A stretch of DNA of 32,000 nt from Geotalea uraniireducens Rf4 (GCF_000016745.1 NC_009483.1:4410001-4442000), one strand, 5' to 3'. Shown: positions 996-25,388, numbered from the stretch's first letter. Numbers and translations are program-made. The notes: generated by a model not told the origin, from the sequence alone.

Positions 996-1009
996 CTTTC
1001 ACCTTTCAC
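984..1009. repeat. Heptanucleotide tandem array (TTCACCT)x3.7; GTGAAAG on the coding strand
   Basis: Read directly: units at 984-990, 991-997 and 998-1004, partial unit 1005-1009. The array contains the TGA stop of the YfhO-like gene (994-992) and the SD and GTG start of the methyltransferase (995-993). Confidence 0.95.
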
Positions 1010-3421: not shown

Positions 3422-3442
3422 TTTTATTACTCCGTTGTATAA

Positions 3443-3491
3443 GGGCAACCCTGTGTGGTTGCCCTGATTGGGCGGCCACATGGGGCCGCCC
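3443..3491. repeat. Twin GC-rich perfect hairpins (REP-like), in the 70-nt gap directly after a stop codon
   Basis: GGGCAACC-ctgtgt-GGTTGCCC (3443-3464) and GGGCGGCC-acatgg-GGCCGCCC (3470-3491). Both have 8-bp perfect stems and 6-nt loops. Neither strand has a U/T tract afterwards. Confidence 0.8.
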
Positions 3492-7852: not shown

Positions 7853-7859
7853 TCCGCGT

Positions 7860-7922
7860 CCTTTATCCTTTATCCTTTATCCTTTATCCTTTATCCTTTA
7901 TCCTCGTTCCTCGTGCCTTTAT
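7860..7922. repeat. Heptanucleotide tandem array (CCTTTAT)x6 + CCTCGTT + CCTCGTG + CCTTTAT; ATAAAGG on the coding strand
   Basis: Six perfect units at 7860-7901, then three more heptads to 7922. Contains the TAA stop of gmd (7893-7891) and the SD for the downstream GT2. Confidence 0.97.
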
Positions 7923-9969: not shown

Positions 9970-11214
9970 CTATACGTCATCGATTATCTCTTGATATAAA
10001 TCCGCATACCTTTTCGCGACCCCATCCATAGCAAACTCTTTTTCCACCTTTTCCCGCGACATGCGACACAACCGTTCTCTCCGGGTATCATCGGCAAGGA
10101 CCCAGTCGATACCACGGGCAAAGTCGTTGGTGTCAAAGGAATGGGCAAGGTAGCCGGTTTGTTCATGGACAACAATATCGAGCAGTCCGGTGGAGGCAAA
10201 CGCCACGACGGGAGTTCCGCACGCCATTGCCTCTGACGCAGTCTGGCCAAAACTCTCCTGCATCGACGGAACGCACATGACATCTGCTGCGGCGTAAGCC
10301 AGAGTCAGGCTTATATCGTCATGCAGTTTACCCAGGCAATGAACCGGCAACGGTATATCCGATAAATCGGCAGGCTGTGAAGCACCAAAAACCAGCAATT
10401 CCGCTTTCTCCGACCAACCGTCTGCAACAACCTGCAAAGCTGACTTAAGGTGGTGGAAACCTTTATTGTGGTCACCAACTATTGTTGCACCGAACAAGAT
10501 CAATTTTTTATCCTGCGGCAACCCCAGGAGTTCGCGGGCAACCCCTTTATTCACTTGTTTGTAACGACTCAAGTCCAATCCATTGGGGATTACTTCGACG
10601 CGTGCTTCCCGGAACAGGGAGCTTGCCTTGACACAATCGCCCATCCAATGACTTGGCGCAACTATGGTCAAGTTCAACCCCTGCCAGGATTTCGCTTTTA
10701 GATTCCATTCCCAGCGCGTTAAATCGTAGTCTCTTTTAGAGCCAAGTTGTGGACAGGCGCCGCAAGAGTTGCAATAGCGCATACACTTACCCGGGAGGTT
10801 ACATCCGCCTGTAAAAGCCCATGAATCGTGCATCGTCCACACTAAAGGCCGGTTAAATTTTCGTAGCGCCGTTACGGGCACAAATCCACAGCAGATCCAA
10901 TGCAGATGCACCAGATCAGGAGCGATCCCCTCAATGGAGCCATGAATATTGCTGGGCGCCCAGGATACCCCCCACGAACTCTGCTGACGGTTGGGGTAAA
11001 ACTTCAAGGGCAAGAGATCAAGGTAGGTGCACAGCTTGTTGATCGCTATTCCAGGTAATCCCTGTGAACCTGTTACGGTCGAATCCTGGCTCGTTTTGTA
11101 CTGGACAAGCATCCGCGAATTGACATCTATACTTTGCAACCCTTTATGCAGACGATACGCGGCACGTCCAGCGCCTCCTTCAATATCGTAAGTGCTGATG
11201 TGGGCAATGCGCAT
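9970..11214 (-). CDS. GT4-family glycosyltransferase
   Basis: 'MRIAHISTYDIEGGAGRAAYRLHKGL' N-terminus and 'ESFGQTASEAMACGTPVVAF' EX7E motif. Confidence 0.85.
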   Translation of the reverse strand: MRIAHISTYDIEGGAGRAAYRLHKGLQSIDVNSRMLVQYKTSQDSTVTGSQGLPGIAINKLCTYLDLLPLKFYPNRQQSSWGVSWAPSNIHGSIEGIAPDLVHLHWICCGFVPVTALRKFNRPLVWTMHDSWAFTGGCNLPGKCMRYCNSCGACPQLGSKRDYDLTRWEWNLKAKSWQGLNLTIVAPSHWMGDCVKASSLFREARVEVIPNGLDLSRYKQVNKGVARELLGLPQDKKLILFGATIVGDHNKGFHHLKSALQVVADGWSEKAELLVFGASQPADLSDIPLPVHCLGKLHDDISLTLAYAAADVMCVPSMQESFGQTASEAMACGTPVVAFASTGLLDIVVHEQTGYLAHSFDTNDFARGIDWVLADDTRRERLCRMSREKVEKEFAMDGVAKRYADLYQEIIDDV

Positions 11215-11225
11215 AGACTTTTATC

Positions 11226-12401
11226 CTACACTAAAGATAGCTTTAAAAGCAATGAACAGGAGTCTTTCAATCGCTCTTTTGAGTGATTTCTCATATAACC
11301 TTCGTAATCCGGCCCAATGCTCTCGTCATCCGCCATACCTGTGGCAAGCTGGCGAATTGCCCTAATGCAGGCATCGACATCATCTTGCTTGATCACTTTC
11401 CCCAGCCTGAATTTTCGGACCCTTTCTGCCATGCAAAAACCATCACTGACTATAATGGCTTTTTTAAAACTAGCCGCTTTTGTCAGCAAATTACTGCTGT
11501 GATAAAACTTTTGATATGCGGCAAAGACAATATCGCTTGCGCAAACCAGCGCGTTAAAAGAAGGCTCATCAGGAATAAATCCTAAATGGAAAAAACAATT
11601 AGATGGACAGGAGGCAATGAAGTTTTCGATATGGTCCAATTCTTTCCTTGTGAAGGTATACTTGTAAAAAACCCCGGCAAAGACAAAAAACAATCCCTCG
11701 TCCACAAGTTTTTTTGCAACTTCAACTAACATCAGCGTTCCTTTTCGCTTGTCAATACATCCGAAAAGGCCAACGATCTTCCTGCCTCTAGCTCTCTCCT
11801 TTATTTGTCCCACGACAGGATAATTCATATCTGGAGCCGATAAATCTGCAAAATCAGGAAAGGAGATTACTGGCTTGGCGAGTTCCCTTTCGAGTGTCTC
11901 TTTGACGCCCTCGTCAAGTAAGGCAACTGATTTGCAGCCGGAACTAAATAATGGAGCGTCACGCACTGGGGTCGGTACCCGCAAGCGCTCCGGAGCAAAA
12001 TAAAGACCAGACCAGACATATGGGAAAACAGCGTCCACAATCCAAGGTTTAAGATGTTTGGCAAAGTACCCATCTAGATAAGTAAAAAACACCAAGTCAG
12101 GCAAAATACCGGTATTTGCCGCTGCCTTCTTTATTGCCAAGGCAGCAGCCTTCCACTGTCTTGTAGTTTTGACCACCCCGGGAAGGAAAGGCTGACATAT
12201 CGGCTCCGTATACTCATATGGGCAAAAGCGCCCAGCCATTTCCCCACAATTCTCTGTTATCCAGTCACCAACTTCAACGGGATTCGGACAGAAGACAACA
12301 ACGTTATAGCCCAATTCCAGTATTGTTTCAGTAAGCAACTTAACGTATGTCGGGTGATGTCCGGTCCAGACTCCGTCAATCAATGCGATGATTTTAGTCA
12401 T
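11226..12401 (-). CDS. Divergent GT-B-fold-like protein (putative glycosyltransferase), function unknown
   Basis: Start placed at ATG 12401 (MTKIIALIDG...), preceded by AGGAG. Two Rossmann-like halves ('KIVGLFGCIDKRKG...FVFAGV', 'SSNLLTKAASFKKAIIVSD') but no clear EX7E motif. Confidence 0.5.
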   Translation of the reverse strand: MTKIIALIDGVWTGHHPTYVKLLTETILELGYNVVVFCPNPVEVGDWITENCGEMAGRFCPYEYTEPICQPFLPGVVKTTRQWKAAALAIKKAAANTGILPDLVFFTYLDGYFAKHLKPWIVDAVFPYVWSGLYFAPERLRVPTPVRDAPLFSSGCKSVALLDEGVKETLERELAKPVISFPDFADLSAPDMNYPVVGQIKERARGRKIVGLFGCIDKRKGTLMLVEVAKKLVDEGLFFVFAGVFYKYTFTRKELDHIENFIASCPSNCFFHLGFIPDEPSFNALVCASDIVFAAYQKFYHSSNLLTKAASFKKAIIVSDGFCMAERVRKFRLGKVIKQDDVDACIRAIRQLATGMADDESIGPDYEGYMRNHSKERLKDSCSLLLKLSLV

Positions 12402-12433
12402 GAAACTCCTGGCGGACCCTTTCCGAACCGGAT

Positions 12434-12586
12434 TCAAAACCAATGTTCAGGAATGAGAATTTCGGCTTGATTCAGCGTCTCAAACAGTGCTTCATTCGCC
12501 ACTATCCTCTTACCAAAGCGAGATTTGTGCCGAAACGGATTGGCTTCATACGGGTAGCATTGAATGCCGCAAGATGGCAGCAGAGA
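12434..12586 (-). pseudogene. Decayed C-terminal fragment of an rve (DDE integrase-core) transposase
   Basis: My translation of the minus strand gives '...YEANPFRHKSRFGKRIVANEALFETLNQAEILIPEHWF*'. The stretch 'EALFETLNQAEILI' resembles the conserved '...E(I/L)F.TL.EA..LIE.WR..YN' tail of IS3-type transposases. It is truncated and has no start codon. Confidence 0.4.
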
Positions 12587-12646
12587 TCATAGGTATAGTT
12601 TAGGTTAGGTTAGCCCCCAAGATCTCCACTTAAAGATAAACTTGGT

Positions 12647-13609
12647 TTATATCAGTTTAAACCATCGCCTCGTGGATCGTCTCTTAGGCTTAATAAATTT
12701 ATAAAATAATACCCACACTATATCTAATAAACTTATAGATACAGCTTTTTTTGTATAATTACTTAGCCAGAGAGATGGCAATAGAAATTTTCGCCCTTCA
12801 TAGTACTCACGTCTCCACTCAAAAGCATAAACTTTACCTGTTGTATTGACATTCAAGTACTGTTCTGCAAACCAGATTCTGGCCTGCCTATAGCATCTAT
12901 TAATATAATTCGATTTGTCACTTATGGTAATAGATCCTTCATGCTTTCTAAAGAAAGAAAGCGGTTTAGAAACAAATGCTATTTGCGCGTATTCTTTAGC
13001 AACGAGCAAATATATTAAAAGATCTGGACCTGCACCATGCTCATAAAAATTTTTGATTGTTGGAGATGGTATTTCTTCCACTAGATTTTTTCTCAGGTCA
13101 TCAGTCCTGAAAATGGCACATCCTGGAGAATATGGAACATTACCTGCAAACAATGACTCCTGGATAAAGTATGAAGAAGGCAATTTCCCCGTCTTCTCTG
13201 CTAATCCATACTGCTCTTGCCCTGTCCAAGGTTCTGTACCCATTATCGCTAGAGTAAAAACAAAACCTACTTCTTCATCACATAAAAAAGGAAGCGTTTT
13301 TTCTAAAAAAAGGGGATCAATAAGGTCATCTGAAAAAAGGATCTTACCAAAACAACCTCTTGCTTCATCAATGCAACGCTGCCAATTTCGGACAGGGCCG
13401 ATGTTGGTTTCATTACGAAAGATTCGAATGCGCGAGTCCTGTCGGGCGAACGTTTTACATACTTCCCAAGTCTTGTCTGTACTGGCATTGTCAACCACAA
13501 TGACTTCAATATCAGTTATGGTTTGTTCAATTGCAGACTGGATGCAAGGCCCAATAAAGGACTCTCTATTATAAACTGGTATCAGTATGCTAACTCTTGG
13601 GATAATCAT
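12647..13609 (-). CDS. GT2-family glycosyltransferase (AT-rich, probably foreign)
   Basis: 'VSILIPVYNRESFIGPCIQSAIEQT...IEVIVVDNASTDKT'. Hand-counted lines give 28-38% G+C. Confidence 0.88.
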   Translation of the reverse strand: MIIPRVSILIPVYNRESFIGPCIQSAIEQTITDIEVIVVDNASTDKTWEVCKTFARQDSRIRIFRNETNIGPVRNWQRCIDEARGCFGKILFSDDLIDPLFLEKTLPFLCDEEVGFVFTLAIMGTEPWTGQEQYGLAEKTGKLPSSYFIQESLFAGNVPYSPGCAIFRTDDLRKNLVEEIPSPTIKNFYEHGAGPDLLIYLLVAKEYAQIAFVSKPLSFFRKHEGSITISDKSNYINRCYRQARIWFAEQYLNVNTTGKVYAFEWRREYYEGRKFLLPSLWLSNYTKKAVSISLLDIVWVLFYKFIKPKRRSTRRWFKLI

Positions 13610-13689
13610 TTCAATAACAACAGTCCTTTTCTGCAGATGACGGAGTTAATATTTTTGCTGCAAGTGAAGTTTGTCTTATTATTAGTTCC

Positions 13690-15027
13690 TTATTCCACGG
13701 CACTCAAGGCTACCCTTTTTCTACGCAGAACACACCAAGGAAGTACCCAGGCTGCCGTCAGCGAGAACGAGGCGATAAGGGCATAAACTATTCCTGCCAC
13801 TCCGAACCTGGGAGCTAGGGATACCTGGAGGAGTACAGTAATGACCGCCTGGGCCGGGATATAGATGACAAAGGGACGCAGGTAGCTCATGCTCTGCAGA
13901 ACCATGGCAAAGGTATCGCTCCAGATGCGTATTACGTTATAGCCACCCATAATGACAATAAACAGTACCGGAACCATAACCGCCTTACCCGGCGCAAGGA
14001 GGTGAATCAACTCTGGCATAAAGAAAGCAAGCAGCAGGGTCGCTCCTGAAAGGAGCAGCACTCCCATGACAATATATTGCTTCACGTAGCCCATCACCAC
14101 ATGCCAGTCATTCCGGGCCACCGCTTCAGCACAAACCGGCCATACAGCAATCAGAAGGGCTGTGTAAATAAAATAAATCAGTCCGAATATTTTAGATGTC
14201 AGGTTGTAGACGACAATTTCATTGGCCGGTAAAAAACGCGCCATCACCAAATAGTCCACCTGGAGCACCCCTGCCGCCATGATAGCGGAAAGCCAGAATT
14301 TAAGCCCCCGTTTCATCAATGGCCACAATATCTCCCGCTTGACAGAACTGCTCCGCTGCAGACTTCCTGTAAACTGCAGCAGGAATGCCACAGCAGGAAG
14401 CATCCCTGCGGGCCCAAATGCGGCGACAAGGCTCCAATACAACTTGTGTTCAAGTGGGCTCCGCGCCACAAAAACAATCGCAGCAAAACTGATAAGAGAC
14501 GCTACAGCCGGCACTACGTTTGCCAAATATCCTTTTTGCTCGGCGTACCATATCCGATAGGCAATCCCGCCGAAACAGGTCGCTATCGATATCACTCCTG
14601 TGATGAAAAAATGTCGTGCCTTTTCAGCATCGTTTAGGAACGGAAACCCCTTTAAGATGAGCGGCGCCAAGAAGGGACTGGCGAAGAACAGGAATAAAAT
14701 GCTTAGTAACATGAGAAAGATGGCGATGACCCCCGCCATCGCAATGAAATCCTCGTAGGGTTGCTTCCCTGCCCGCCGTTCGGAAATATGGTTCTGCAGG
14801 CTCGTGCCAACCCCCATGTCTGCCAAGAGGTACCATCCCTGTAAGCCCCCCAACACTGCATAGAGGGCATACTGTTCCGTACCAAGACCTTGAATCAATA
14901 TACGAATACTAAACAGCCCCACCACCGCCGTTACCAGACGGCTGATCCATGCACTAGCCGCAACCAGCAGATGGGAAGGTATGCGGTTCAAGATTCCCGG
15001 TTTAGCATTGACGGTCAAAGATGTCAC
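13690..15027 (-). CDS. wzx: Wzx-type oligosaccharide flippase (MOP superfamily)
   Basis: Polytopic throughout. The N-terminus '[30 protein letters not shown]' is typical of polysaccharide-biosynthesis/Wzx proteins. GTG start at 15027 overlaps the tyv stop; TTG at 15018 is an alternative. Confidence 0.8.
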
Positions 15028-16039
15028 CTACCCACTCTACCATCCGCCCGACCCCTTCGCGGGCGCTCACCTGCGGCTCCCATCCGAGCATGCGCTTCGC
15101 CTTCGCTATATCCGCGACAAAGAGCCGCTGATCGCTCTCCCGCGGCGGCAGCTTCCTGTAATCGAGCTTGACGCCAGTCAATTCTTCAAGAAGGGCGAAC
15201 AATTCAAGCAGAGAGAGGCTGTTGTGAATCCCGCCACCGATATTGAATGCTTGCCCCTTTGAGATATCGATGCGCTCCAACACAGAGAAGTAGAGACGGG
15301 CCATGTCGTCGGCATGGAGCACGTCGCGCACCTGTTTGCCATTGCCGGAAATGGTGAACGGCTCCTTGAGCACGCCGTTTTTGCTTTCCACGGCCTTCTG
15401 GCAGAACCAGCCGATCCATCCCTGGTCGTATGTTGCAAACTGCCTGCCGCCGTACATGGATGAGTGGCGGAAAACCGCTGTTTTCAGCCCGAAGATCCTG
15501 GCGTAGTCAAGCATATACTGATCAGCGGCACCCTTGGAACAGCCGTAGGGTGAATGGAAATCCAGCTGGGTGGTTTCGTCAAAGCCGACGGGCCTTTCAA
15601 TGCACTCGTAGCGCGTTTCCGTTTCCCGGTAGGAGTACTGCTCCAGATCGCCGTAGACCTTGTTGGTGGACGAATAGATGACGGCCGCCTGTGGGTTAAA
15701 CTGACGGACTGCTTCCAGAAGGTTGTGCGTCCCCAGCACATTCACCTCAAAATCCATGCGCGGATTGGCGATGGATGTGGTCATGGCAACCTGACCGGCC
15801 AGGTGGAAAATGGCATCGGGTCTGAACTCCTGCACCAGCCTGCTCACGTCGTTCTGGTTACGGATGTCGCCATGGACAAATCGGAACGTTCCCCGGCTTT
15901 TCAGCCAGCGGAGGTTCTCCAGGGAACCATCCCGATACAGACTGTCAAACACTGCCAGGTCATAACCACCACTTGTCAAAGCATGGGCTGCCAGGTTGCT
16001 GCCAAGAAACCCGCAGCCACCGGTAATTAATAGCTTCAT
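15002..16039 (-). CDS. rfbE: CDP-paratose 2-epimerase (CDP-tyvelose 2-epimerase) family SDR
   Basis: '[17 protein letters not shown]', '[12 protein letters not shown]', '[14 protein letters not shown]', '[26 protein letters not shown]', '[27 protein letters not shown]' closely match my memory of Salmonella RfbE/Tyv. ATG at 16039, ATGA overlap with the prt stop. Confidence 0.85.
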
Positions 16040-16935
16040 CAATGCGTTCCTTTCGCGCCCCGACGGGACACCTCTTCTTCGATGGTTTTCCTGAGACCGT
16101 CGGCCAGGCCGACCTTGCACGACCAGCCGAGCGCCACGAGACTGCTGATATCCGCGTGAGACTCCATGACCTCATTGTCCCGATAGGGAAGCGCCCCAAA
16201 ATTCAAATGAGTATTGGAACCAGTGAGACGGTGGACGGTCTCCACCAGCTCGCGTAAGCCAATAGCCTCGCCCGACCCTAAATCGTATTCCTGGAATGCC
16301 TGCCCACTGCCGGAATTATTTTTCAGCAACAGCAGATACGCAGCAACCACGTCATCGATATGGATAAAATCACGCCTCTGCGCGCCGGCAGTAAGGGGTA
16401 ATTCAGGCGCGTTATCCAAACAGCTATCGATGACATGGGTGAGGAACTTGGATGCATCGTCCCCTGCTCCATAAAAATGCTCCAGCTCAATATTCACGAA
16501 GCGTATCCGCCCTTGACCGGCAAATAACCGCCCCCAATCCGCAAACTGTTTTTTCGCCAGGGAATACGGATTCAGAAACCTGTCAAGACTGGTGTCCGTA
16601 TTGAAAAAGGTATCCGTGGCAAAAGATGCGGCCGTTTCCAGAAGCCGTAACGGGAATGCAGCATTGGCCTCAAAAATCTCACTAACGCTTTCGCCGCTGC
16701 GGCCATAACATGTTGCGGTATGGATAACAGAATCGATTTTGCTCTGTTCTTCAAACGGTTCTTCCAAGCTGCAGAGGTCCAGGTCGTAGGAGGTGAGTCG
16801 GGGCAAGATGTCGGCAACGCGTCCGGTGTCGGAGAAGCTCCGCTTCAATATAATCACCTGATGACCCTCGTTAAGAAGGGCCTTTACAAGATGGCTTCCA
16901 AGAAAACCTGTCGCACCGGTAACAAGGATTTTCAT
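16039..16935 (-). CDS. rfbS: CDP-paratose / CDP-abequose synthase family SDR (CDP-4-keto-3,6-dideoxyhexose reductase)
   Basis: '[16 protein letters not shown]', 'NPYSLAKK', '[15 protein letters not shown]', '[15 protein letters not shown]' fit the RfbS/RfbJ pattern. The position between ddhC and tyv supports the call. Confidence 0.75.
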
Positions 16936-18281
16936 CTCTTACAAAACCCTCGCAGCGTTGCAATCATGAACTCCACCATCTCCCCGGTCATACCCGGATA
17001 AACCCCGATCCAGAAGGTGTCGTGCATTATTCTGTCGGTATTCTCCAGGTTACCGACGACCCGATACCCTTTCCCTTCTTCCCGCATCTCATCGAAACAG
17101 GGGTGCTTAATCAGGTTGCCGGCAAAGAGCATCCGGGTCTGGATGCCTTTGGACTCCAGGTGGCTGACGATCTCATCCCTGGTGAAACCGGCGTCTTCGC
17201 GCACGGTGAGCAGGAAGCCGAACCAACTCGGGTCAGAATCCGGCGTCGGCTCCGGGAGAATGAACCTGTCGGCAAGCTTTGCCAAACCTTCCCGCAACAG
17301 CCGCCAGTTCTTCTTCCGCGCTTCGATGAAGCCGGGTAGCTTCTCCAGTTGAGCGACTCCGATGGCCGCCTGCATGTCGGTCACCTTCAGGTTGTAGCCA
17401 AAGTGGGAATAAACGTATTTATGGTCGTAGCCGTAGGGGAGCTCGCCGAACTTTTGGGTGAAGCGGTTGCCGCAGGTGTTATCGCGGCCCGACGGGCACC
17501 AGCAGTCGCGACCCCAGTCGCGGAATGACTCCACCAGTCGCTTGAGGGTGGTGTCGTCGGTATAGACCGCCCCCCCCTCCCCCATGGTCATATGGTGGGG
17601 GGGATAAAAACTGGAGGTGCCCAGATGGCCGATGGTGCCGGTATAACGCCATTCGCCGTTGTGGAGATAGCGCGAGCCGAGCGCATCGCAGTTGTCCTCG
17701 ATCAGCCAGAGATTGTGCCGGTCACAAAAAGCCTTGACCGCCTTGAGATCGAAGGGATTACCCAGGGTATGGGCCAGCATCACCGCTTTGGTGCGGTCGG
17801 AAAGGGCAGCCTCCAGTTGGGTGCTGTCCGCATTGTAGGTGGGAAACTGCACATCAATAAAGACCGGCACTGCACCGTACTGGATAACCGGCGCAACGGT
17901 GGTGGGAAAGCCGGCAGCCACGGTAATCACCTCGTCTCCCCGTTTTATCCGTCGCGCCCCCAGCTTCGGCGAAGTAAGCGCCATGAATGCCAGCAGGTTG
18001 GCGGAGGAACCGGAATTGGTCAGTGAGCAGTGCTGAACGCCAAGGAATTCGGCGAATTCCTTTTCGAATTTCTCCGCGTATCTGCCGGTGGTAAGCCAAA
18101 AATCGAGGGAGGAATCAATCAGACTGGCAATTTCCCTTTCATCAAAAACCCGGCCGGCATAGGGTATGCGATTTCCCGGGATGAACGGCTTATCGCCTTT
18201 ATGCCTGAACTCATAATACCTGAGTGCAGCCTGAATAGCCTGCTCCCGCAACTCTTTTTCCTGTTTTTTGGCGTCGTCCAC
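16932..18281 (-). CDS. rfbH: CDP-6-deoxy-L-threo-D-glycero-4-hexulose-3-dehydrase (E1), DegT/DnrJ/EryC1 fold
   Basis: 'GRVFDEREI', '[10 protein letters not shown]', '[11 protein letters not shown]', '[16 protein letters not shown]' are RfbH/DdhC hallmarks. GTG start at 18281 with AGAGGT upstream. ATGA overlap with prt. Confidence 0.9.
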
Positions 18282-18325
18282 ACTATACCTCTAACTTAAC
18301 CCTTAAATATCAACATTATTAACGG

Positions 18326-19411
18326 CTATACCGTCAGGTATTCCTCCATCTGCTTGAGACAGGCCTCCCGCAGGTCCCGTTTTTCCCGATAGGCCTCCGT
18401 CCACTCAACGATGCTGTCCAGCGACCGCTCAAGGCCCCATCGCTGCCGCCACCCCAGTTCAGCCCTTGCCTTGGAGCAGTCGAGCTTCAGGAAGTGGGCC
18501 TCGTGGGGATGGTCGCCCATGTCCAGCTCATATGCTGCGCCTTCACCCCACCGGGCGCAGAGCCTCTCCACAATCCACTCAACAGGCCTGGCGTCTTCGT
18601 CATGGGGGCCGAAGTTCCACCCGGAAGCAAAAGCAGGACCTTCCTCATAGAGCCGCTGCGCCAGGAGCAGGTAGCCGGAAAGGGGTTCAAGGACATGCTG
18701 CCAGGGGCGGATGGCGTGCGGATTCCTGATCAGAATCTTTTCGCCACTCAACAGCGACTTGACGCAGTCTGGAATGAGCCGGTCAACTGCCCAGTCGCCG
18801 CCGCCGATGACATTGCCGGCCCGGGCAGTTGCCACGGCTGCGCCGTGGCGTTGAGTGGCTGAACTGTTGAGTTGTTGATTGACAAAATACGACGAGCGAT
18901 AGGCGGCTGTCACCAACTCCGAACACCCCTTGCTGTTGGAGTAGGGGTCATACCCCCCCATCGGCTCGTTTTCCCGGTACCCCCAGATCCATTCACGGTT
19001 TTCGTAGCACTTGTCGGTGGTCACGTTGACCACCGCCTTTACGCGGGGGCAGCTGCGCACCGCTTCCAGCAGGTGAACGGTCCCCATGACGTTGACGGCG
19101 TAGGTCTCCACCGGGATTTTGTACGAGTCCCGCACAAGAGGTTGGGCCGCCATGTGGATGACGATATCGGGAGAGGCCTTGACCATCTCCGACTTCAGCC
19201 GGTCACCGTCCCGCACATCGGCAATGGTCGAGGCAACAAGATCGTTGATGCCGCACAACTCAAACAGGCTCGGCTCCGTCGGCGGCGCCAGCGCATAGCC
19301 AGTCACCTCTGCCCCGAGGGAATGGAGCCACAAAGAAAGCCACGAACCCTTGAAACCTGTATGGCCGGTGAGGAAGATTTTTTTGCCTTTCCAGAACTCC
19401 ATATCATTCAT
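18326..19411 (-). CDS. rfbG: CDP-glucose 4,6-dehydratase
   Basis: 'FWKGKKIFLTGHTGFKGSWLSLWL', 'DPYSNSKGCSELV'. Start placed at ATG 19411 (MNDMEFW...). The track's longer N-terminus runs through the intergenic heptamer relic. Confidence 0.9.
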   Translation of the reverse strand: MNDMEFWKGKKIFLTGHTGFKGSWLSLWLHSLGAEVTGYALAPPTEPSLFELCGINDLVASTIADVRDGDRLKSEMVKASPDIVIHMAAQPLVRDSYKIPVETYAVNVMGTVHLLEAVRSCPRVKAVVNVTTDKCYENREWIWGYRENEPMGGYDPYSNSKGCSELVTAAYRSSYFVNQQLNSSATQRHGAAVATARAGNVIGGGDWAVDRLIPDCVKSLLSGEKILIRNPHAIRPWQHVLEPLSGYLLLAQRLYEEGPAFASGWNFGPHDEDARPVEWIVERLCARWGEGAAYELDMGDHPHEAHFLKLDCSKARAELGWRQRWGLERSLDSIVEWTEAYREKRDLREACLKQMEEYLTV

Positions 19412-19454
19412 ACATTTTCCGTTTTTGCCATTGAAGATATAAGGCCTTTCACCA

Positions 19455-19482
19455 CCGACCGCCGACTGCCGCCCCCCGACCG
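19455..19482. repeat. Degenerate 4-unit relic of the CCGACCG heptamer family
   Basis: ccgaccg, ccgactg, ccgcccc, ccgaccg. Starts 6 nt downstream of the ddhA stop (19491-19489). Same orientation as the right arm of the 24220-24372 array. Confidence 0.6.
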
Positions 19483-19488
19483 TCTTCT

Positions 19489-20259
19489 CTACCAGATTTT
19501 CCACGGCGCTCGGCCGCTGGTCCAAAGCTCCTCCAGGTGCATCTTGTCCCGTAGCGTATCCATCGGCTGCCAGAACCCCGAGTGCTTATAGGCCGCCAGC
19601 TGGCTGTCGCGCGACAATCCCTCGAGCGGTTCCTTTTCGAAGACCGTTGCGTCTCCCGCAATACGATCGAGCACCTGCGGCTCAAGGACAAAGAAACCGC
19701 CGTTGATCCATGAGCCGTCACCAGCCGGCTTTTCCTGGAATGCCGTCACATTGTTCGCGCCGTCAATGCTCAAGGCGCCGAAGCGGCCGGACGGCTGGGT
19801 GGAGGTAACGGTCGCCAGCTTGCCGTGGCGTTTGTGAAAATCAATCAGCTTGGAAATATCAACGTCCGCAACCCCATCGCCGTAGGTCAGCATGAAGGTT
19901 TCATCTGCCACATAGGGGGCAATGCGTTTTACCCTGCCGCCGGTCATCGACTCCATGCCGGTATCCACGAGGGTCACCCGCCACGGTTCGGCCTTTTTCT
20001 GGTGGACCTCCATGGAATTAGTGCGCATATCGAAGGTAACGTCGCTCATGTGGAGAAAATAGTTGGAAAAGTACTCTTTGATCACGTACCCCTTGAAGCC
20101 CAGGCAGATGACGAAGTCGTTGAAACCGTAGTGGGAGTAGATCTTCATTATATGCCAGAGGATCGGCTTGCCGCCTATCTCCACCATCGGCTTCGGCCTT
20201 ATTACCGTCTCTTCGCTGAGTCTGGTTCCCAGACCGCCTGCCAGAATGACTACTTTCAT
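19489..20259 (-). CDS. rfbF: Glucose-1-phosphate cytidylyltransferase
   Basis: 'MKVVILAGGLGTRLSEETVIRPKPMVEIGGKPILWHIMK'. ATG at 20259 with GGAG 9 nt upstream. Confidence 0.92.
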   Translation of the reverse strand: MKVVILAGGLGTRLSEETVIRPKPMVEIGGKPILWHIMKIYSHYGFNDFVICLGFKGYVIKEYFSNYFLHMSDVTFDMRTNSMEVHQKKAEPWRVTLVDTGMESMTGGRVKRIAPYVADETFMLTYGDGVADVDISKLIDFHKRHGKLATVTSTQPSGRFGALSIDGANNVTAFQEKPAGDGSWINGGFFVLEPQVLDRIAGDATVFEKEPLEGLSRDSQLAAYKHSGFWQPMDTLRDKMHLEELWTSGRAPWKIW

Positions 20260-20316
20260 GGTACGCGCTCCTCTTTTTCGTCTGCATAGTATCGGACACT
20301 TCTCCGCTGCCCACAA

Positions 20317-20931
20317 TCACTTATTCTTAGGCCCGTCGGCATGGTATATCATCCCGGGATCGACCCCCAGCCGCAGCAACTCCTGCCGCAACGCAGCCCC
20401 CCTTTTCAACGAGGTAACGACAATCCGGTGATTGCCGGACAGAAGCCCCATCGCCAAGGTGGCCACCGGCCTGTCGAAAAAGGTGCCGCCGGCTGCATCA
20501 TCATCCATGACCGCCACGAGCTCAAGCCCCGTCTCCCCAAGGGAGAGGTAGGCGATCTCCGCCACCTCATCCACCCCGCAGAAGGCGACCTTTCTTATGC
20601 CTTGGGCGTGCAGCGAGCGGAACAGGACGAGGTAGTCCTGACGGGCGATGGTATAGAGACTGGAAAAATATCCAAGGTGCTGGTAGGCGAGACGGCTTTT
20701 TTCCGCGATCCCCTGGGGGGTCAGGAGGTAGGCGTAACGGTTTCTGGGAAAGTTTTTGACCCTGACGAACCCCTTGCCGACCAGGTTCTTCAGGTAGGAA
20801 TTGACGAGACCCAAGGCAATGCCGAGCCTTCGGGACAGTTCCCGCTGGGAAATGGGTTCTTCCGTCGATATTTCCGCCATGAGCAGCAAGGCGCGGTAAC
20901 TGTCCAGGGATTTTTCATCGATATCGTTCAC
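20317..20931 (-). CDS. Winged-helix (MarR/EPS-associated type) transcriptional regulator fused to a Rossmann-like C-terminal domain
   Basis: 'ISQRELSRRLGIALGLVNSYLKNLVGKGFVRVKNFPRNRYAYLLTPQGIAEKSRL' fits the EPS-locus MarR pattern as I recall it. The C-terminal 'RKVAFCGVDEVAEIAYL...LELVAVMDDD...HRIVVTS' looks like a CoA-binding/Rossmann-type module. GTG start at 20931, no SD. Confidence 0.7.
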   Translation of the reverse strand: MNDIDEKSLDSYRALLLMAEISTEEPISQRELSRRLGIALGLVNSYLKNLVGKGFVRVKNFPRNRYAYLLTPQGIAEKSRLAYQHLGYFSSLYTIARQDYLVLFRSLHAQGIRKVAFCGVDEVAEIAYLSLGETGLELVAVMDDDAAGGTFFDRPVATLAMGLLSGNHRIVVTSLKRGAALRQELLRLGVDPGMIYHADGPKNK

Positions 20932-20944: not shown

Positions 20945-20967
20945 CATCAACCTGGAAAGATTAGCAA
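20939..20967 (-). promoter_or_regulatory. Candidate sigma70-type promoter TTGCTA-N17-TATCGT for the regulator/ddh operon
   Basis: On the minus strand, -35 TTGCTA (20967-20962), a 17-nt spacer, then -10 TATCGT (20944-20939). The -10 overlaps one palindrome arm. A start site here would give a nearly leaderless GTG. Confidence 0.3.
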
Positions 20968-20975
20968 TAAAAAAT

Positions 20976-21060
20976 CTGGGAACTGGGAACTGGGAACTGG
21001 GAACTGGGAAGTCCATTACCGATCCCCGATCCCGGATCCCAGTTCACCGGTTTTCTTCAG
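20976..21060. repeat. Composite element copy 1: (CTGGGAA)x5 + conserved 31-nt G/C-run core with (CCGATCC-like)x3
   Basis: Five perfect units at 20976-21010. Core 'taccgatccccgatcccggatcccagttcac' is at 21017-21047. The TAA stop of the DUF2304 gene (21018-21016) lies between array and core. On the coding strand the array is followed by ATTTTTTATT. Confidence 0.95.
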
Positions 21061-21396
21061 TTTCTCGAACTCGTGACGCATGAGCGCATTATCCTGCACA
21101 AGGTCCTTCAGCTGGTCGGAGAGCCGGGAAATCTTGATGGAAAACTGCACCGCCAGCAGGATGAGGAAGATGATGGAGCCGAAGAAGAGCGTCGAAGTGG
21201 GGAGTTCGGCGCCGACAAGGTGGGTAAGGGCCACCAGCCAGTCGTACTTGATGACCAGGATGAACATGGTGAAGCTGGTGACGAGCCAGAGCACCGAATA
21301 CTCCTCCCGCAGCCGTTTTTTGCGCACCATTTCGATGGTGAATACGAACACGAGAAGACTGACAACGAGGGCGAATATCTGCTGCTTTATCGGCAT
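21016..21396 (-). CDS. DUF2304-type small integral membrane protein
   Basis: 'VRKKRLREEYSVLWLVTSF...' followed by hydrophobic helices and an amphipathic tail. The classic pairing directly downstream of a GT2 gene supports the call (3-nt gap). Confidence 0.75.
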   Translation of the reverse strand: MPIKQQIFALVVSLLVFVFTIEMVRKKRLREEYSVLWLVTSFTMFILVIKYDWLVALTHLVGAELPTSTLFFGSIIFLILLAVQFSIKISRLSDQLKDLVQDNALMRHEFEKLKKTGELGSGIGDR

Positions 21397-21399
21397 TTC

Positions 21400-22113
21400 C
21401 TACCTCCGATACAATTGACGGTTCCTGAGCAGGGTAACGACTATGGAAAGACACATCTTGAACATGTAATAAAGCGGTTTGAAACCGCTGTGCATGGTCT
21501 TCCCCGCAGCATTGGCAAACATGCGCACCGGAATTTCCCTGATCCTGAATCCGGCCAGGTTCAGGGTTATCAGCATATCCGCATCGGGATAATCGCAGGG
21601 AAAGACGTCGGTGGTGAAAAACCGCATGACGTCGCGGTTAAAGGCCTGGTAGCCGGAAGTGGGGTCGGATATGGTCCGGCCGATCAGGGAGGAGACCAGT
21701 TTGCGAAAGAAGAGTATCCCCAGCCGGCGGGAAAAGGATGGACGGTAGCTTTCCACCCCCAGAAAACGCGAACCGACGACAAAATCCGTGTCTCCGGCTA
21801 CAACCGGCCTCATCAGCTCGGGGATGAATGCCGGGTCATGCTGGCCGTCGCCGTCGATCTGCACCAGGAAGTCGTAACCCTTGGCGTAAGCGAACTTGTA
21901 AGCGGTCTGGATCGTCACGCCATATCCCATGTTGAACGAGTGTGAAACGACGATGGCTCCTGCCGCCGCGGCTTCCCGGGCAGTGCTGTCTTTGGAGCCG
22001 TCATTCACCACCAGGATATCGAAATCGGGGACAACGCGCCGCACGTTTTCGATGACACGGGCAATCACCCCCCCCTCGTTGTAGGCAGGTATCACGACAA
22101 TGGTTTTGGACAT
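21400..22113 (-). CDS. GT2 polyprenyl-phosphate glycosyltransferase (GtrB/DPM1/ArnC-like)
   Basis: 'IVVIPAYNEGGVIARVIENV...ILVVNDGSKDST', 'LVQIDGDGQHDP' (DxD). Short soluble-plus-C-terminal-tail format typical of lipid-carrier sugar synthases. Confidence 0.8.
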   Translation of the reverse strand: MSKTIVVIPAYNEGGVIARVIENVRRVVPDFDILVVNDGSKDSTAREAAAAGAIVVSHSFNMGYGVTIQTAYKFAYAKGYDFLVQIDGDGQHDPAFIPELMRPVVAGDTDFVVGSRFLGVESYRPSFSRRLGILFFRKLVSSLIGRTISDPTSGYQAFNRDVMRFFTTDVFPCDYPDADMLITLNLAGFRIREIPVRMFANAAGKTMHSGFKPLYYMFKMCLSIVVTLLRNRQLYRR

Positions 22114-22127
22114 TCAGAAACCTTTTT

Positions 22128-24116
22128 TCAATCCGGGAACTGGGAACTGGGAACTGGGTTTTTACCGATCCCCGACCCCAGATCCCCGTTCACTGACTTC
22201 AGCAGCTTTGCGGCAAACTCCGGATTCAGCGACTTAAGGATTACATATTGGTCGGTGGCCTTCTGCGTCTCCTTGCTCGCCGCATAGGCCAAGCCCAGAT
22301 TATAGTGGGCCTCGCTCAGGCGTGGATTCATGGCAATGGATTTTTCATAATTATCTATGGAGTCAGCAAGCTGTCCCATGGAATCATAGGCCAATCCAAG
22401 GTTGTTATAGCCGAGGGCAAACCATTCGTTCTGGTATGCGGCGTTCATGCCCATGCTCGCATCAAACAACTCATAGGTCGGGCTGTAACGGCCGGCATAG
22501 GTCCCGAGCTGGCCAAGCGCTATGCCGATATTGTTCCACGCATCGGGATGCCCCGGAGAAATGCCTATGGAGCGGATCAACGCAGGTATCGCCTTTTTCG
22601 GCTGATGCTTCTTCAAATAGGCATAGGCCAGGTTGTTCCACGGCCGCGACTTGTCGGGGGACTTTGCCGCCACATCCTGCCAGAGGGTCGTCTCGTCCTG
22701 CCAGACCATGTTGCGCCTGAAGGTTGCCGTTGCAAGGGAGACGGCGACCAGCAGCAGGGCGATGAATGCTATTCCGGCAATCTGTGGCCTCCGCACAGCC
22801 AATCGGTCCACCGCCAGCACCACGGCCGTTGACAGCGCCATGAAAAATCCGATCGACGGCAGGTAGACCCTGTGCTCGAAGATAACGTCAACGATCGGGA
22901 TGACGCTCGACTCAACCGCCAGGGCGATGAAAAACCAGAAAATGCCGAAGGCTGTGAGGCGGTAAACGGCGGTCGGCGGTCGGTGGTCGGTGGTCGATGG
23001 TTGATGGTAAAAGGCGGTCGGAGGTCGGTGGTCGGTGGTCGATGGTGAACTATCCAACGTAGAACGTAGAACGTAGAACGTAGAACGATAAACAAAATAA
23101 ATCCCCACGCCGAAGATCGCCAGCAGCAGCAGGAAAGAGAGGAACACAGGGGCATTGAAAAAGGAGTGGGCCACCGGAAAGTCATGGTCAAGGTTCTGCC
23201 CTACCGGGAAAAACAGCAGCCTGAGATAGGTGACGATCACCCGGAACTGGGTGAAGAGATAGTCAAGCCGTGGCATCTCCGTCTGGACCATGGTTGCCGC
23301 CTCCAGCCTCCCCAGGAGCTGTCCCGCCCCGGAGGAGCCGAGCATGCTCAAAGGGATGATGGCCAGGGTGAGGAGAAATGCACCGATGAACATGACCCGC
23401 TTGGCGATGCTCCCCCTGAAAAACATGAACTCGTAAAGAATCACCGTGAACGGCAGGGTAAAGGCGATCTCCTTGGTTTTCATGGCAAGGACCGCCGTTA
23501 AGAGCGACAGGAGATAGCAGGCTGCGGCAAACAGCTTTCCCCGCCGGCCGCCCCCCCCCTGCTCCAACCGCGCCATGATGTAGAGGACGAGGGAACCAAT
23601 GTAGAACATGGCTGCAAGTGAAGTGAAGCGCTGGACAATGTAGGTTACCGCCTGGGTCTGGAGCGGATGGGCAACGAAGAGGAGCGCCGCAAACAGCGCA
23701 ATCGGTCCGCTGAAGCGCCCCCTCTCCCCCTCTTCCGCCGGAGCGAGCAACGGGGTCCTGAAAGTGAGGGTCACCAGGGTATAGACAAGGAGGGCGGTCG
23801 CAAGATGGATCGCCAGATTGACCAGATGATAGCCGAAGACATCGAGACCGTTCAGCCGGTAATTGACGGCAAAGGTGAAGTCCCCCACCGCCCGGCTCCC
23901 CTTGACGGCGAAGGGGTCGGCGAACGGATCCACGTTTCTCACGACCGGGTTGCCGAGGATGTTGGCAATATCGTCGAAGTTGAAGGTGGCGGTGAAGGTG
24001 TTGGAGTAGGCCAGAAGCCCAAGGGAGATAACGAGGAGAAGATGAAGCACGGTCGCAAACCGCGTCCGCCGGTAAACAAAGTCACTGAATCTGCTTGTCA
24101 TGGATAGAGAGTTCAC
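22128..24116 (-). CDS. PMT/TMTC-like GT-C membrane glycosyltransferase with C-terminal TPR domain
   Basis: 'FNFDDIANILGNPVV' acidic loop after the first helix and 'EHRVYLPSIGF' match PMT_2/TMTC-type enzymes. C-terminal TPR-like repeats include 'WNNLAYAYLKKHQPKKAIPALIRSI', 'AWNNIGIALGQLG', 'YNNLGLAYDSMGQLADSIDNYEKSIAMNP' and 'AHYNLGLAYAAS'. GTG start at 24116 has AGGA about 7 nt upstream. Confidence 0.75.
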   Translation of the reverse strand: MNSLSMTSRFSDFVYRRTRFATVLHLLLVISLGLLAYSNTFTATFNFDDIANILGNPVVRNVDPFADPFAVKGSRAVGDFTFAVNYRLNGLDVFGYHLVNLAIHLATALLVYTLVTLTFRTPLLAPAEEGERGRFSGPIALFAALLFVAHPLQTQAVTYIVQRFTSLAAMFYIGSLVLYIMARLEQGGGGRRGKLFAAACYLLSLLTAVLAMKTKEIAFTLPFTVILYEFMFFRGSIAKRVMFIGAFLLTLAIIPLSMLGSSGAGQLLGRLEAATMVQTEMPRLDYLFTQFRVIVTYLRLLFFPVGQNLDHDFPVAHSFFNAPVFLSFLLLLAIFGVGIYFVYRSTFYVLRSTLDSSPSTTDHRPPTAFYHQPSTTDHRPPTAVYRLTAFGIFWFFIALAVESSVIPIVDVIFEHRVYLPSIGFFMALSTAVVLAVDRLAVRRPQIAGIAFIALLLVAVSLATATFRRNMVWQDETTLWQDVAAKSPDKSRPWNNLAYAYLKKHQPKKAIPALIRSIGISPGHPDAWNNIGIALGQLGTYAGRYSPTYELFDASMGMNAAYQNEWFALGYNNLGLAYDSMGQLADSIDNYEKSIAMNPRLSEAHYNLGLAYAASKETQKATDQYVILKSLNPEFAAKLLKSVNGDLGSGIGKNPVPSSQFPD
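22134..22202. repeat. Composite element copy 2: (CTGGGAA)x3.6 + conserved 31-nt core
   Basis: Units at 22134-22158. Core 'taccgatccccgaccccagatccccgttcac' at 22163-22193 matches copy 1 at 28 of 31 positions by hand alignment. The flanking 'cttcag' is also shared. Here the GT-C/TPR ORF reads through the whole element. Confidence 0.9.
22968..23089. repeat. Intragenic heptanucleotide arrays: two blocks of GGCGGTC/GGTGGTC/GATGGTN units, then (GAACGTA)x4-5
   Basis: Block 1 at 22968-23009 (6 units), 'aaa', block 2 at 23013-23047 (5 units), 'aactatc', then caacgta + gaacgta x3 + gaacgat (23055-23089). Encodes '...STFYVLRSTLDSSPSTTDHRPPTAFYHQPSTTDHRPPTAVY...'. Confidence 0.95.
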
Positions 24117-24219
24117 CCGGAAATCCTGTCAGAATTGAAGGTAATGATCATTTGAAAATAGCAAAAAACTATTTTTGCCACGAATAACACGAAAAGCATC
24201 TAATGTATAGGCCCTTTTT

Positions 24220-24372
24220 GGCGGTCGGCGGTCGGCGGTCGGCGGTCGGAAGTCAACCCATAGGACTACAGTCGGCGGTCGGCGGTCGGAAGTCAACCCA
24301 TCGACCATCGACCATCGACCATCGACCATCGACCACCGACCACCGACCACCGACCACCGACCGCCGACCGCC
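24220..24372. repeat. 153-nt composite heptamer palindrome: (GGCGGTC)x4 ... (GGCGGTC)x2 ... (TCGACCA)x5 (CCGACCA)x3 (CCGACCG)x2
   Basis: Units mapped by hand. 'ggcggtcggcggtcggaagtcaaccca' is directly repeated (24234-24260 and 24274-24300). 24357-24372 is the exact reverse complement of 'ggcggtcggcggtcgg', which occurs in several registers in the left arm. Starts 2 nt after the GT2 stop. Confidence 0.97.
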
Positions 24373-24374
24373 TC

Positions 24375-25388
24375 TCATCTATCCAGCAATTCCTTGAAAG
24401 ACATCCGGTATCGCTGCAACAGGCGGGCCATCTCCCTGCCTGAGATTCTCCTCTTTTCCATCACCAGCGCCCGTTTTTTCAGCATGGCCGGCGCACCGCA
24501 CAGTGCGTCCCTGGTCCCTTTGGCGATCGCCTTGAGCAGGGCATTGCGGGAGCCGCTTGCAAGGAATTCCCCACCGGAGCCGCTGGCGAAAATGACCGCC
24601 CGCGCCTGCTCCAGGTAGCGGACCAGGGTGAAAAACGGAACCAGCAGCAGCATAGCGAGGGGAAAGCACTTCAACGCCACCCAGTAATGGTTACGTTCCA
24701 CCAGATAGAGCTTGAACGGCGAAAAGACCCCGCCGGTCCTGGAATACTTGTGATAGACCACCGCCTGCGTGGCGAGGAGCGCTTGCCACCCCGCCAGCCT
24801 GCACCTTAGCCCCAGGTCGGTATCCTCGGCATAGGCGAAAAAATCGTCGTCGAAGAAACCGGTCTCGTCCAGCATTGTCCGCCGGTAGAGGGCAACGCAG
24901 GCGCTGGGGAAGAGGATCTCCTCAACCTCTGCCATATTCATGGTTGAATAGCGCTTGAGGCGGAACCTCCCGCGGGACATGCCGTCGCGGCAGACGCCAT
25001 GGCCGAGGGAATCGATCCGGTCCGGCTCGTCAAATGAACAGATCCGGCTCCCCACCATCCCCACCCGCGGGTCGCTGTCCGCCACGGCAACAATGGTTGC
25101 CAGCCAGTTTTCATCAGCCCTGGTATCGTTGTTGAGGGCAACGATATACTCGCCCGAGGCATGGGTAAGGCCGACGTTGTTGCCGGTGGCAAAGCCGGTG
25201 TTTTCCTTGAGCTCGACGAGCTTCACCCAGGGGTAGCGCTCACGGAGAAACCCTACAGACCCGTCGGAAGAGCCGTTATCGACGATGATCACCTCGAAGT
25301 CCTGGAAGCTCTGGGCCGACAGGCTGTCCAGGCAGACAGCCAGGTGCTCCAGGCCGTTCCAGTTGACGATTATTATGGAGACTCTCAT
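24375..25388 (-). CDS. GT2-family glycosyltransferase (rhamnosyltransferase-like)
   Basis: 'VSIIIVNWNGLEHLAVCLDSL...FEVIIVDNGSSDGS...NTGFATGNNVG'. ATGA overlap with the upstream gene. Confidence 0.88.
   Translation of the reverse strand: MRVSIIIVNWNGLEHLAVCLDSLSAQSFQDFEVIIVDNGSSDGSVGFLRERYPWVKLVELKENTGFATGNNVGLTHASGEYIVALNNDTRADENWLATIVAVADSDPRVGMVGSRICSFDEPDRIDSLGHGVCRDGMSRGRFRLKRYSTMNMAEVEEILFPSACVALYRRTMLDETGFFDDDFFAYAEDTDLGLRCRLAGWQALLATQAVVYHKYSRTGGVFSPFKLYLVERNHYWVALKCFPLAMLLLVPFFTLVRYLEQARAVIFASGSGGEFLASGSRNALLKAIAKGTRDALCGAPAMLKKRALVMEKRRISGREMARLLQRYRMSFKELLDR

Follow-up and report, generated by a model that had tools for sequence, protein, structure and literature searches.

A candidate extracytoplasmic glycosylation module with heptamer arrays in its GT-C/TPR gene in Geotalea uraniireducens Rf4

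What do the products of three tightly packed genes in a polysaccharide gene cluster of Geotalea uraniireducens Rf4 glycosylate, and do they act together? The genes lie on the minus strand of a 32,000-nucleotide stretch of DNA (NC_009483.1:4410001-4442000; here called the window, with positions counted from its first letter). Open reading frame (ORF) calling placed them at 22128-24116, 21400-22113 and 21016-21396, coding for proteins of 662, 237 and 126 amino acids, respectively: a large protein with a membrane domain of the GT-C glycosyltransferase type and a tetratricopeptide repeat (TPR) domain, a short glycosyltransferase of family 2 (GT2), and a small membrane protein of family DUF2304. 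A reading made from the sequence alone had described the genes as consecutive and tightly spaced, and the ORFs are indeed separated by only 14 nt and then 3 nt. At NCBI, a G. uraniireducens entry named 'tetratricopeptide repeat protein' matches the large protein with 100% identity; there the start is set at the ATG at 24101, which gives 657 amino acids. Our preferred account, which we regard as probable though far from certain, is that the trio works as a multi-component module for extracytoplasmic glycosylation, akin to the Gtr and Gac systems, that its acceptor is most probably a lipopolysaccharide (LPS) or exopolysaccharide (EPS) glycan, and that the GT-C gene is prone to slippage.

The three proteins and the linkage of their genes

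The large protein was modelled with AlphaFold (AF2), both at full length (pLDDT 84.8, pTM 0.86) and as residues 1-477 alone (pLDDT 75.9, pTM 0.82). The second model was made because Foldseek, given the full-length model, retrieved nothing but TPR proteins. With the separate model of the membrane domain (22686-24116, minus strand, approximately 11 transmembrane (TM) segments), eight matches had a probability of at least 0.96, all of them GT-C enzymes, and all other matches remained at or below 0.16. The best match was Pmt4 of Chaetomium (CtPmt4 9i5k, E 6.9e-4, TM-score 0.47), ranks 1 to 6 were occupied by protein O-mannosyltransferases (PMTs), and the other top matches included yeast Pmt1-Pmt2 (6p25), ScPmt4 (9e61), ArnT (5f15) and the mycobacterial EmbA-EmbB complex (7bvf). 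WaaL and Wzy were not among the Foldseek matches of the domain model, and Pfam gave no Wzy_C/O-antigen ligase match in the large protein, so that neither method pointed to an O-antigen ligase or polymerase.

Across 63 homologues, D48, H97/N100/H104, H150-P151, Q162-R163, K215-E216 with T220, Q307-N308 with D312, E402, D410, and H415-R416 with Y418 are invariant, and at least 90% of these share D49, D310 and E414. D48 and D49 are placed in the first periplasmic loop and belong to the sequence FNFDD (residues 45-49), which had already been picked out in the sequence-only reading. The published motifs of the human TMTC proteins are DD, KE(T/Q)xxT and ERxxY, and the motifs of the large protein line up with these by eye, not by profile. 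The AlphaFold model also has the layout of TMTC proteins, with approximately 11 TM segments followed by a TPR domain. The latter, expected at the C-terminus from the start, was recovered by Pfam (TPR_1, 7.6e-20, and related TPR families, residues 480-640; 22128-22685 on the minus strand when the array-encoded tail is included) and has TPR matches in the PDB as well. Pfam reported only TPR families for the large protein, and phmmer against PDB sequences only TPR matches. None of the Pfam models for PMT, PMT_2 and DUF1736 matched the membrane domain at E <= 10, these three families were also absent from all 120 homologues listed, and no MIR domain was found in the large protein by Pfam. The fold and the motifs support the earlier proposal of a PMT/TMTC-like GT-C enzyme, and the curated sequence models gave no match. 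By fold and motifs only, the large protein is predicted to be a GT-C enzyme of the PMT/TMTC type, and its TPR domain would be periplasmic if the N-terminus lies inside the cell. A profile of the domain matched 73,892 cluster representatives (50% identity) at E <= 1e-3, and 13,475 when the threshold was 1e-30. The family, which has very many members in Nitrospirota and Geobacterales, lacks Pfam coverage, and no characterised member was found in the literature searched.

The second gene (21400-22113, minus strand) encodes a GT2 (Glycos_transf_2, 1.4e-22) that contains the sequence QIDGDGQHD and, within it, the DGDGQHD motif reported earlier. Its best NCBIfam match is PpgS (6.5e-29), followed by AglJ, a haloarchaeal dolichyl-phosphate hexose transferase and ArnC, all top matches being polyprenyl- or dolichyl-phosphate sugar synthases. 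Against the PDB it matched ArnC (2.4e-11), Pyrococcus DPMS (PfDPMS, 6.6e-10) and GtrB (4.8e-5). These matches agree with the initial view that the second protein is a polyprenyl-phosphate sugar synthase, and we predict from its sequence that it is of this type. The label 'GtrB-like', however, had to be abandoned: with 237 amino acids, against 316 positions in the ArnC model, the protein has no counterpart of the membrane helices at the C-termini of GtrB and ArnC, and the absence of these helices, as read from the sequence, is a hallmark of the GacI/PpgS type.

The third gene (21016-21396, minus strand) codes for a small membrane protein of the GacJ/Rv3632 family (DUF2304; PF10066, 1.5e-28). 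GacJ co-purifies with GacI (Rush et al., bioRxiv 10.1101/180810), shifts the Km of GacI for undecaprenyl phosphate from 18.7 to 1.1 uM and its Vmax from 54 pmol to 18.5 nmol/min/mg, and the same study describes stimulation of PpgS by Rv3632 and reports DUF2304-GacI fusions in Geobacter species. The DUF2304 protein had at first been considered a component of unknown role, possibly the flippase; the family is characterised as a GT2 activator, and nothing points to a flippase. Because members of the GacJ/Rv3632 family bind and activate their GT2, the protein is best seen as a partner, neither an orphan nor a flippase, and by analogy it is predicted to be the binding partner and activator of the GT2. 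The two genes together would be an instance of the known pair of the GacI/GacJ (PpgS/Rv3632) type.

The linkage of the three genes is conserved. The trio is present in all Geotalea orthologues examined, the order GT-C/TPR gene, 237-amino-acid GT2 and DUF2304 is kept in G. toluenoxydans and G. argillaceus, and metagenomic relatives with 71-95% identity share it. Of 79 genome loci that were retrieved by protein motifs of the membrane domain, nine contain a DUF2304 gene (L005, L006, L007, L013, L017, L018, L041, L042 and L054), the chance expectation for a single-copy gene in a 16-kb span being approximately 0.4%. In all nine, this gene adjoins a GacI-like GT2. Its distance to the GT-C/TPR gene is approximately 1 kb or less in all but L007; in that locus the retrieved copy is approximately 6 kb away, and the DUF2304 gene lies beside another GT-C/TPR gene, a tandem copy. 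The nine loci include Nitrospirota, with a permuted gene order, and when all loci with a DUF2304 gene are counted, it adjoins a GacI-like GT2 in 16 out of 16 (in the window with the gap of 3 nt). The co-occurrence that the idea of a three-gene system implied was therefore found, both in the Geotalea orthologues and in these nine loci. In Geotalea sp. SG265 (L005, 9933-11018), a single ORF with an N-terminal DUF2304 domain fused to a GacI-like GT2 follows immediately on the orthologous GT-C/TPR gene, in the place of the separate pair. This fusion is only 32-40% identical to the separate GT2 and DUF2304 genes of the window, indicating that the pair was replaced in place. Members of the GT-C/TPR family often occur as several paralogues or tandem copies per genome, mostly unlinked to a GT2/DUF2304 pair, which fits one donor pathway serving several acceptor-specific transferases.

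Heptamer arrays in and around the GT-C/TPR gene

The sequence-only reading had placed heptamer arrays within the module and on either side of it, and Tandem Repeats Finder confirmed them there, at 20976-21010 (CTGGGAA x5, 100%), 21019-21040, 22135-22158, 22165-22188, 22961-23087 and 24220-24369. When the RNA of the mRNA strand was folded, array-pair hairpins were found to bracket the trio. Upstream, a large palindromic array element (24215-24372; inverted repeat of 35 nt, 89% complementary) lies between the module and the preceding GT2 gene, and its minus strand folds at 24215-24360 with -101.6 kcal/mol (z -9.98). An AT-rich stretch separates the element from the GT-C start; a simple sigma-70 scan of the spacer (24117-24215) found no promoter. 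Downstream of the DUF2304 gene, the minus strand forms a heptamer-array hairpin at 20965-21060 (inverted repeats I3 and I6; -37.7 kcal/mol, z -2.84), followed by AUUUUUU. This hairpin with its U6 looks like a terminator that ends the trio unit; a simple terminator scan did not detect it. A further array pair is located within the GT-C ORF, at its 3' end (22135-22188), and the minus strand folds at 22125-22200 with -31.6 kcal/mol (z -3.06). The tail of the large protein encoded by heptamer arrays, GDLGSGIGKNPVPSSQFPD, is absent from the homologues P0002 and P0003.

The arrays at 22961-23087 consist of TTCTACG x4.6 and CCACCGA-type blocks on the coding strand and code for the cytoplasmic loop between TM8 and TM9. 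Their content differs from that of relatives that are 90-96% identical, and they are the likely slippage site. Heptanucleotide arrays inside and between genes have previously been noted in Geobacter metallireducens and are the commonest long simple repeats in many prokaryotes, so that the new element is not the arrays themselves, which are already known, but their distribution across this gene family. In 81 loci (within L001-L090), picked by protein motifs and not by repeats, there were 5.6 period-7 arrays per 10 kb of GT-C/TPR ORFs, compared to 0.35 in the cores of other coding sequences, 1.2 at the ends of coding sequences and 2.3 in non-ORF DNA. The density in GT-C/TPR ORFs is thus approximately 16-fold that of other coding DNA, and periods 6 and 9-13 showed no enrichment in these ORFs. 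When 140 arrays were mapped on the protein, they fell almost only within residues 120-139, 180-209 and 340-389, which are the predicted cytoplasmic loops TM2-3, TM4-5 and TM8-9. The sequences of the array units vary between lineages, and even between alleles that are 90-96% identical to that of the window.

A slipped allele was found in an orthologue. In the P0008 group, which is 71% identical and has the same trio, several samples carry an intact gene of 625 amino acids with (GTTCAAC)x5, whereas in two other metagenome samples the array is (GTTCAAC)x4, the frame is shifted and the gene is split, the remaining 160 nt being identical (L088 3900-4060, compared with L086 4004-4170 and L087 3731-3897). 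The slip falls in the same loop as the window's arrays at 22961-23087, and in this loop another pair of alleles, more than 90% identical, differs by an in-frame stretch of 21 amino acids, equal to nine units. The one-unit slip allele and the nine-unit gain together indicate that the arrays slip. The suggestion that the repeats make the module phase-variable has therefore gained support, from an orthologue that differs in exactly one heptamer unit, and phase variation of the GT-C gene is likely.

Period-8 and period-14 arrays are likewise denser in GT-C/TPR ORFs; the window's sites with arrays of these periods or of period 7 are 22961-23087, 23718-23733 and 23551-23559. The G9 tract (23551-23559) and G8 tract (22068-22075), earlier listed among the repeats of the module, are present, but their frequency is that of chance (four runs of at least eight G in the window, versus 4.19 expected), and they were rejected as contingency sites. 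Further heptamer arrays are located at other gene junctions in the window (984-1009, 3494-3510, 7762-7911 and 19451-19482). Such junction arrays often overlap stop and start regions and add short tails to ORFs, examples in the module being 'GSGIGDR' and 'GSGIGKNPVPSSQFPD'. In metagenome sample ERZ27247098, a relative 96% identical to the window gene breaks precisely at the heptamer arrays, its two parts lying on separate long contigs (split and comparison: L084 5001-6110, L089 4001-4918 and L090 3667-5643). The N-terminal half is joined to trpA and methyl-accepting chemotaxis protein (MCP) genes, a CorC/CNNM gene precedes the C-terminal half, and in a JGI sample the gene is intact. This split may be a real rearrangement or a repeat-induced chimeric assembly, and it was not counted as evidence.

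Proposed mechanism, surrounding cluster and acceptor

In the mechanism that we propose, the short GT2 would use a nucleotide sugar to charge polyprenyl (undecaprenyl) phosphate with a sugar at the cytoplasmic face, while the DUF2304 protein, with three TM segments, would hold the GT2 at the membrane and activate it, as GacJ does for GacI and Rv3632 for PpgS. The lipid-linked sugar would then be flipped by a protein outside the trio. At the periplasmic face, the 11-TM GT-C enzyme would transfer the sugar to the acceptor via D48, D49 and the KE and HRxY motifs, with the periplasmic TPR domain selecting or holding the acceptor or a partner. The acceptor would most probably be an LPS/EPS glycan of the surrounding cluster, a periplasmic or surface protein being the main alternative. 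Slippage by 7 nt at the cytoplasmic-loop arrays could switch the modification off, and presumably on again, within populations.

The neighbours of the trio in the window include many GT4, GT2 and GT9 genes, two GDP-mannose dehydratases, and rfbF, rfbG and rfbH equivalogs above their cut-offs, which make up the CDP-3,6-dideoxyhexose pathway. Directly after the trio lies a gene for a MarR-type regulator resembling those associated with EPS (20317-20931, minus strand; HTH_24 and MarR in Pfam), which matches NCBIfam MarR_EPS at 2.3e-19, with 69 bits under the cut-off of 88. This gene is a conserved neighbour of the trio in Geobacterales, with copies 86-96% identical at the same position in L001, L005 and L085, and it ends the conserved trio order except in L086-L088. 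Past it, the window continues with rfbF, rfbG, rfbH and short-chain dehydrogenase/reductase (SDR) genes (15002-20316), where relatives that are 95% identical (L089/L090, 6829-8918) have a Polysacc_synt (Wzx) flippase and a methyltransferase instead. Variable genes beside a conserved block are typical of hypervariable O-antigen/EPS loci.

On the other side, the upstream GT2 of 337 amino acids (24375-25388, minus strand; Glycos_transf_2, 2.5e-27) has homologues beside the GT-C/TPR gene in Geobacterales and Nitrospirota (L005, L018, L042, L054, L084 and L085), and may be a fourth recurrent partner of the system. A candidate flippase of the cluster is a membrane protein of 445 amino acids encoded 6 kb away (13690-15027, minus strand), with a weak match to MatE (4.6e-5, under the Pfam cut-off). 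A stretch at 11000-14000 has a low GC content (42-45% versus approximately 58%), holds glycosyltransferase genes together with this MatE-like protein, and looks like a horizontally acquired repeat-unit/flippase segment. At 992-3502 (minus strand), a membrane protein of 836 amino acids is encoded that weakly matches the C-terminus of YfhO (7.6e-7, just under the cut-off) and may be a second GT-C-type user of lipid-linked sugar in the cluster.

Because the module lies in a polysaccharide cluster with variable, O-antigen/EPS-like neighbours, and because Wzm/Wzt genes adjoin two Nitrospirota relatives, we consider an LPS/EPS glycan more likely as acceptor than a protein. Several observations weigh against our account of the module, its acceptor or its switching. 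The membrane domain has no relevant Pfam match even at E <= 10, so that the GT-C assignment cannot derive from Pfam; it has no match among PDB sequences either, even with a profile of 14 sequences, and the top Foldseek values are modest (E 6.9e-4 to 7e-2, TM-score 0.33-0.47). The GT2 scores 101 bits with the PpgS equivalog of NCBIfam (polyprenyl-phosphate-GalNAc synthase), far under the cut-off of 370, and its sugar specificity therefore cannot be assigned. No gene for a flippase (GtrA/SMR, Wzx or MATE) is present within the trio, and in approximately 70 of the 79 loci the family member is not located beside a GT2/DUF2304 pair. When 150 genes immediately next to family members were surveyed with Pfam, the result was heterogeneous (GT2 15, TPR 10, multihaem cytochromes 7, DUF2304 5), with no dominant partner beyond GT2, and the acceptor is not fixed by this context. 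With regard to slippage, the window's own allele is intact and no slip variant of it was seen. A search for frameshifts at arrays in the 81 loci (approximately 100 genes) gave two frame changes, neither at an array, and the split alleles of G. toluenoxydans (P0270, P0272 and P0274) and the P0292/P0295 pair are not at arrays. Finally, a protein as acceptor is favoured by the best fold matches, which are to protein O-mannosyltransferases, and by the fact that peptides are frequent ligands of TPR domains. As for the multihaem cytochrome genes among the neighbours (Paired_CXXCH_1 and Cytochrome_C7, for example at 10044-10637 of L012, on the same contig as L002), their presence may be a simple effect of their abundance in these genomes.

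A protein acceptor is the most serious alternative. The GT-C/TPR enzyme would then be a bacterial counterpart of TMTC and PMT enzymes, transferring a lipid-linked sugar to Ser/Thr of periplasmic or surface proteins, with the TPR domain binding the polypeptide. Apart from the fold matches to CtPmt4, Pmt1-Pmt2 and ScPmt4, the enzyme agrees with the published description of TMTC in its 11 TM segments, in the TPR domain at its C-terminus and in the motifs DD, KE..T and HRxY, and some members of the family carry the JGI label 'protein O-mannosyl-transferase'. Many paralogues and tandem copies per genome are what would be expected of acceptor-specific enzymes, and in an alignment of Geobacterales orthologues (A1) the TPR domain looks, by eye, more conserved than the membrane domain. 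However, the gene is located within an LPS/EPS cluster and relatives adjoin Wzm/Wzt genes, ArnT and the Emb proteins, which act on lipids or glycans, are also top Foldseek matches with similar scores, and the census of 150 neighbours revealed no conserved candidate for a substrate protein beside the gene. Moreover, TPR domains are common in scaffolds for polysaccharide export and modification too. We regard a protein acceptor as possible, but unlikely.

Modification of lipid A or core by an ArnT-like enzyme, rather than of an O-antigen/EPS repeat unit or a protein, would be in keeping with the presence of ArnT (5f15) among the GT-C fold matches, with ArnC as the best PDB match of the GT2, and with the GT9 heptosyltransferase-like core genes in the window. 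ArnT, however, ranked under the PMTs with a poor alignment (root-mean-square deviation 20.5), ArnT-type enzymes are not known to carry a TPR tail, genes of the arnA, arnB or arnD type are not found nearby, and the GT2 is without the C-terminal TM helices that the 316-position ArnC model includes, all of which makes this reading very improbable. In a further reading, the adjacency is meaningless: the large protein would be a non-catalytic TPR membrane scaffold, and the GT2/DUF2304 pair would serve a different GT-C, for instance the YfhO-like protein (992-3502). In favour of it, most family members are unlinked to such a pair, a second GT-C-like gene is present in the window and the membrane domain matches no curated family. 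It nevertheless seems hardly credible, since the positions of the GT-C catalytic motifs hold acidic, basic and histidine residues that do not vary among the 63 homologues, the linkage recurs in two phyla with a permuted order and an in-place swap for a fused pair, and the unit has gaps of 14 and 3 nt and is bracketed by hairpins.

Comparison with known glycosylation systems

The proposed glycan-modifying module most closely resembles GacI-GacJ-GacL(-GacK), which acts on the side chain of the group A carbohydrate of Streptococcus pyogenes, and PpgS-Rv3632(-Rv3779) of Mycobacterium tuberculosis. These systems likewise have a short GT2 without TM helices, there making polyprenyl-phosphate-HexNAc, beside a DUF2304 protein, and a GT-C enzyme that uses the lipid-linked sugar outside the membrane, as we propose for the module. 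In contrast, the host of the module is a Gram-negative Geobacterales species, its GT-C enzyme is TMTC/PMT-like with a TPR tail and thus of a different family than GacL or Rv3779, no Wzx-like flippase is part of the unit, and there are heptamer arrays prone to slippage in its GT-C gene. How a lipid-sugar synthase and a GT-C enzyme together glycosylate targets outside the cytoplasm is well understood in a few pathogens; here, the same logic would serve a GT-C enzyme that is TMTC-like and bears a TPR domain. For the large uncharacterised family to which this enzyme belongs, the conserved linkage with a GacI/GacJ-type pair offers a concrete donor pathway.

The same logic underlies Gtr-type O-antigen glycosylation (GtrA, GtrB and Gtr*) and the GT136 pentofuranose systems. 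In Gtr-type systems, a polyprenyl-phosphate sugar synthase and a flippase supply an acceptor-specific periplasmic GT-C enzyme that acts on a polysaccharide, with the genes in or beside O-antigen loci. GtrB works without a DUF2304 partner and, unlike the GT2 of the module, possesses TM helices at its C-terminus, and no GtrA/SMR or MATE flippase adjoins the module. Moreover, Gtr* enzymes are not known to carry a TPR domain, which the GT-C enzyme of the module has.

With TMTC1-4 (GT105) and PMT-POMT (GT39), the large protein shares the GT-C fold, PMTs being its best structural matches, and with TMTC in particular the arrangement of approximately 11 TM helices ahead of a TPR domain on the luminal or periplasmic side, DD in loop 1, KE..T and (E)HRxY. 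It differs from them in having no PMT, PMT_2 or DUF1736 match and no MIR domain, which is a PMT feature, in a donor that would come from a GacI/GacJ-type pair and not from a Dol-P-Man synthase, and in its location in a polysaccharide cluster. A bolder version of the protein reading, to which we give still less weight, is that the family is a prokaryotic counterpart of TMTC, composed of acceptor-specific periplasmic protein O-glycosyltransferases that are fed by GacI/GacJ-type pairs and individually switched by heptamer slippage. If true, free-living Geobacter and Nitrospirota would have a phase-variable surface glycoproteome. The module also offers a bacterial model of acceptor choice by TMTC-type enzymes.

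The arrays in the cytoplasmic loops and the allele split by one unit suggest that environmental non-pathogens vary their surface modification by slippage, perhaps against phages or grazers. The simple sequence repeat (SSR) contingency loci of Neisseria, Haemophilus and Campylobacter are alike in having an in-ORF repeat whose unit length is not divisible by 3, in a surface-glycan gene, and in that a change of one unit gives a frameshifted natural allele, here seen in an orthologue. Unlike those loci, the GT-C/TPR genes contain heptamers in 4-10 copies, with several arrays per gene and units that vary between close relatives, and their hosts are free-living bacteria of sediment and groundwater.

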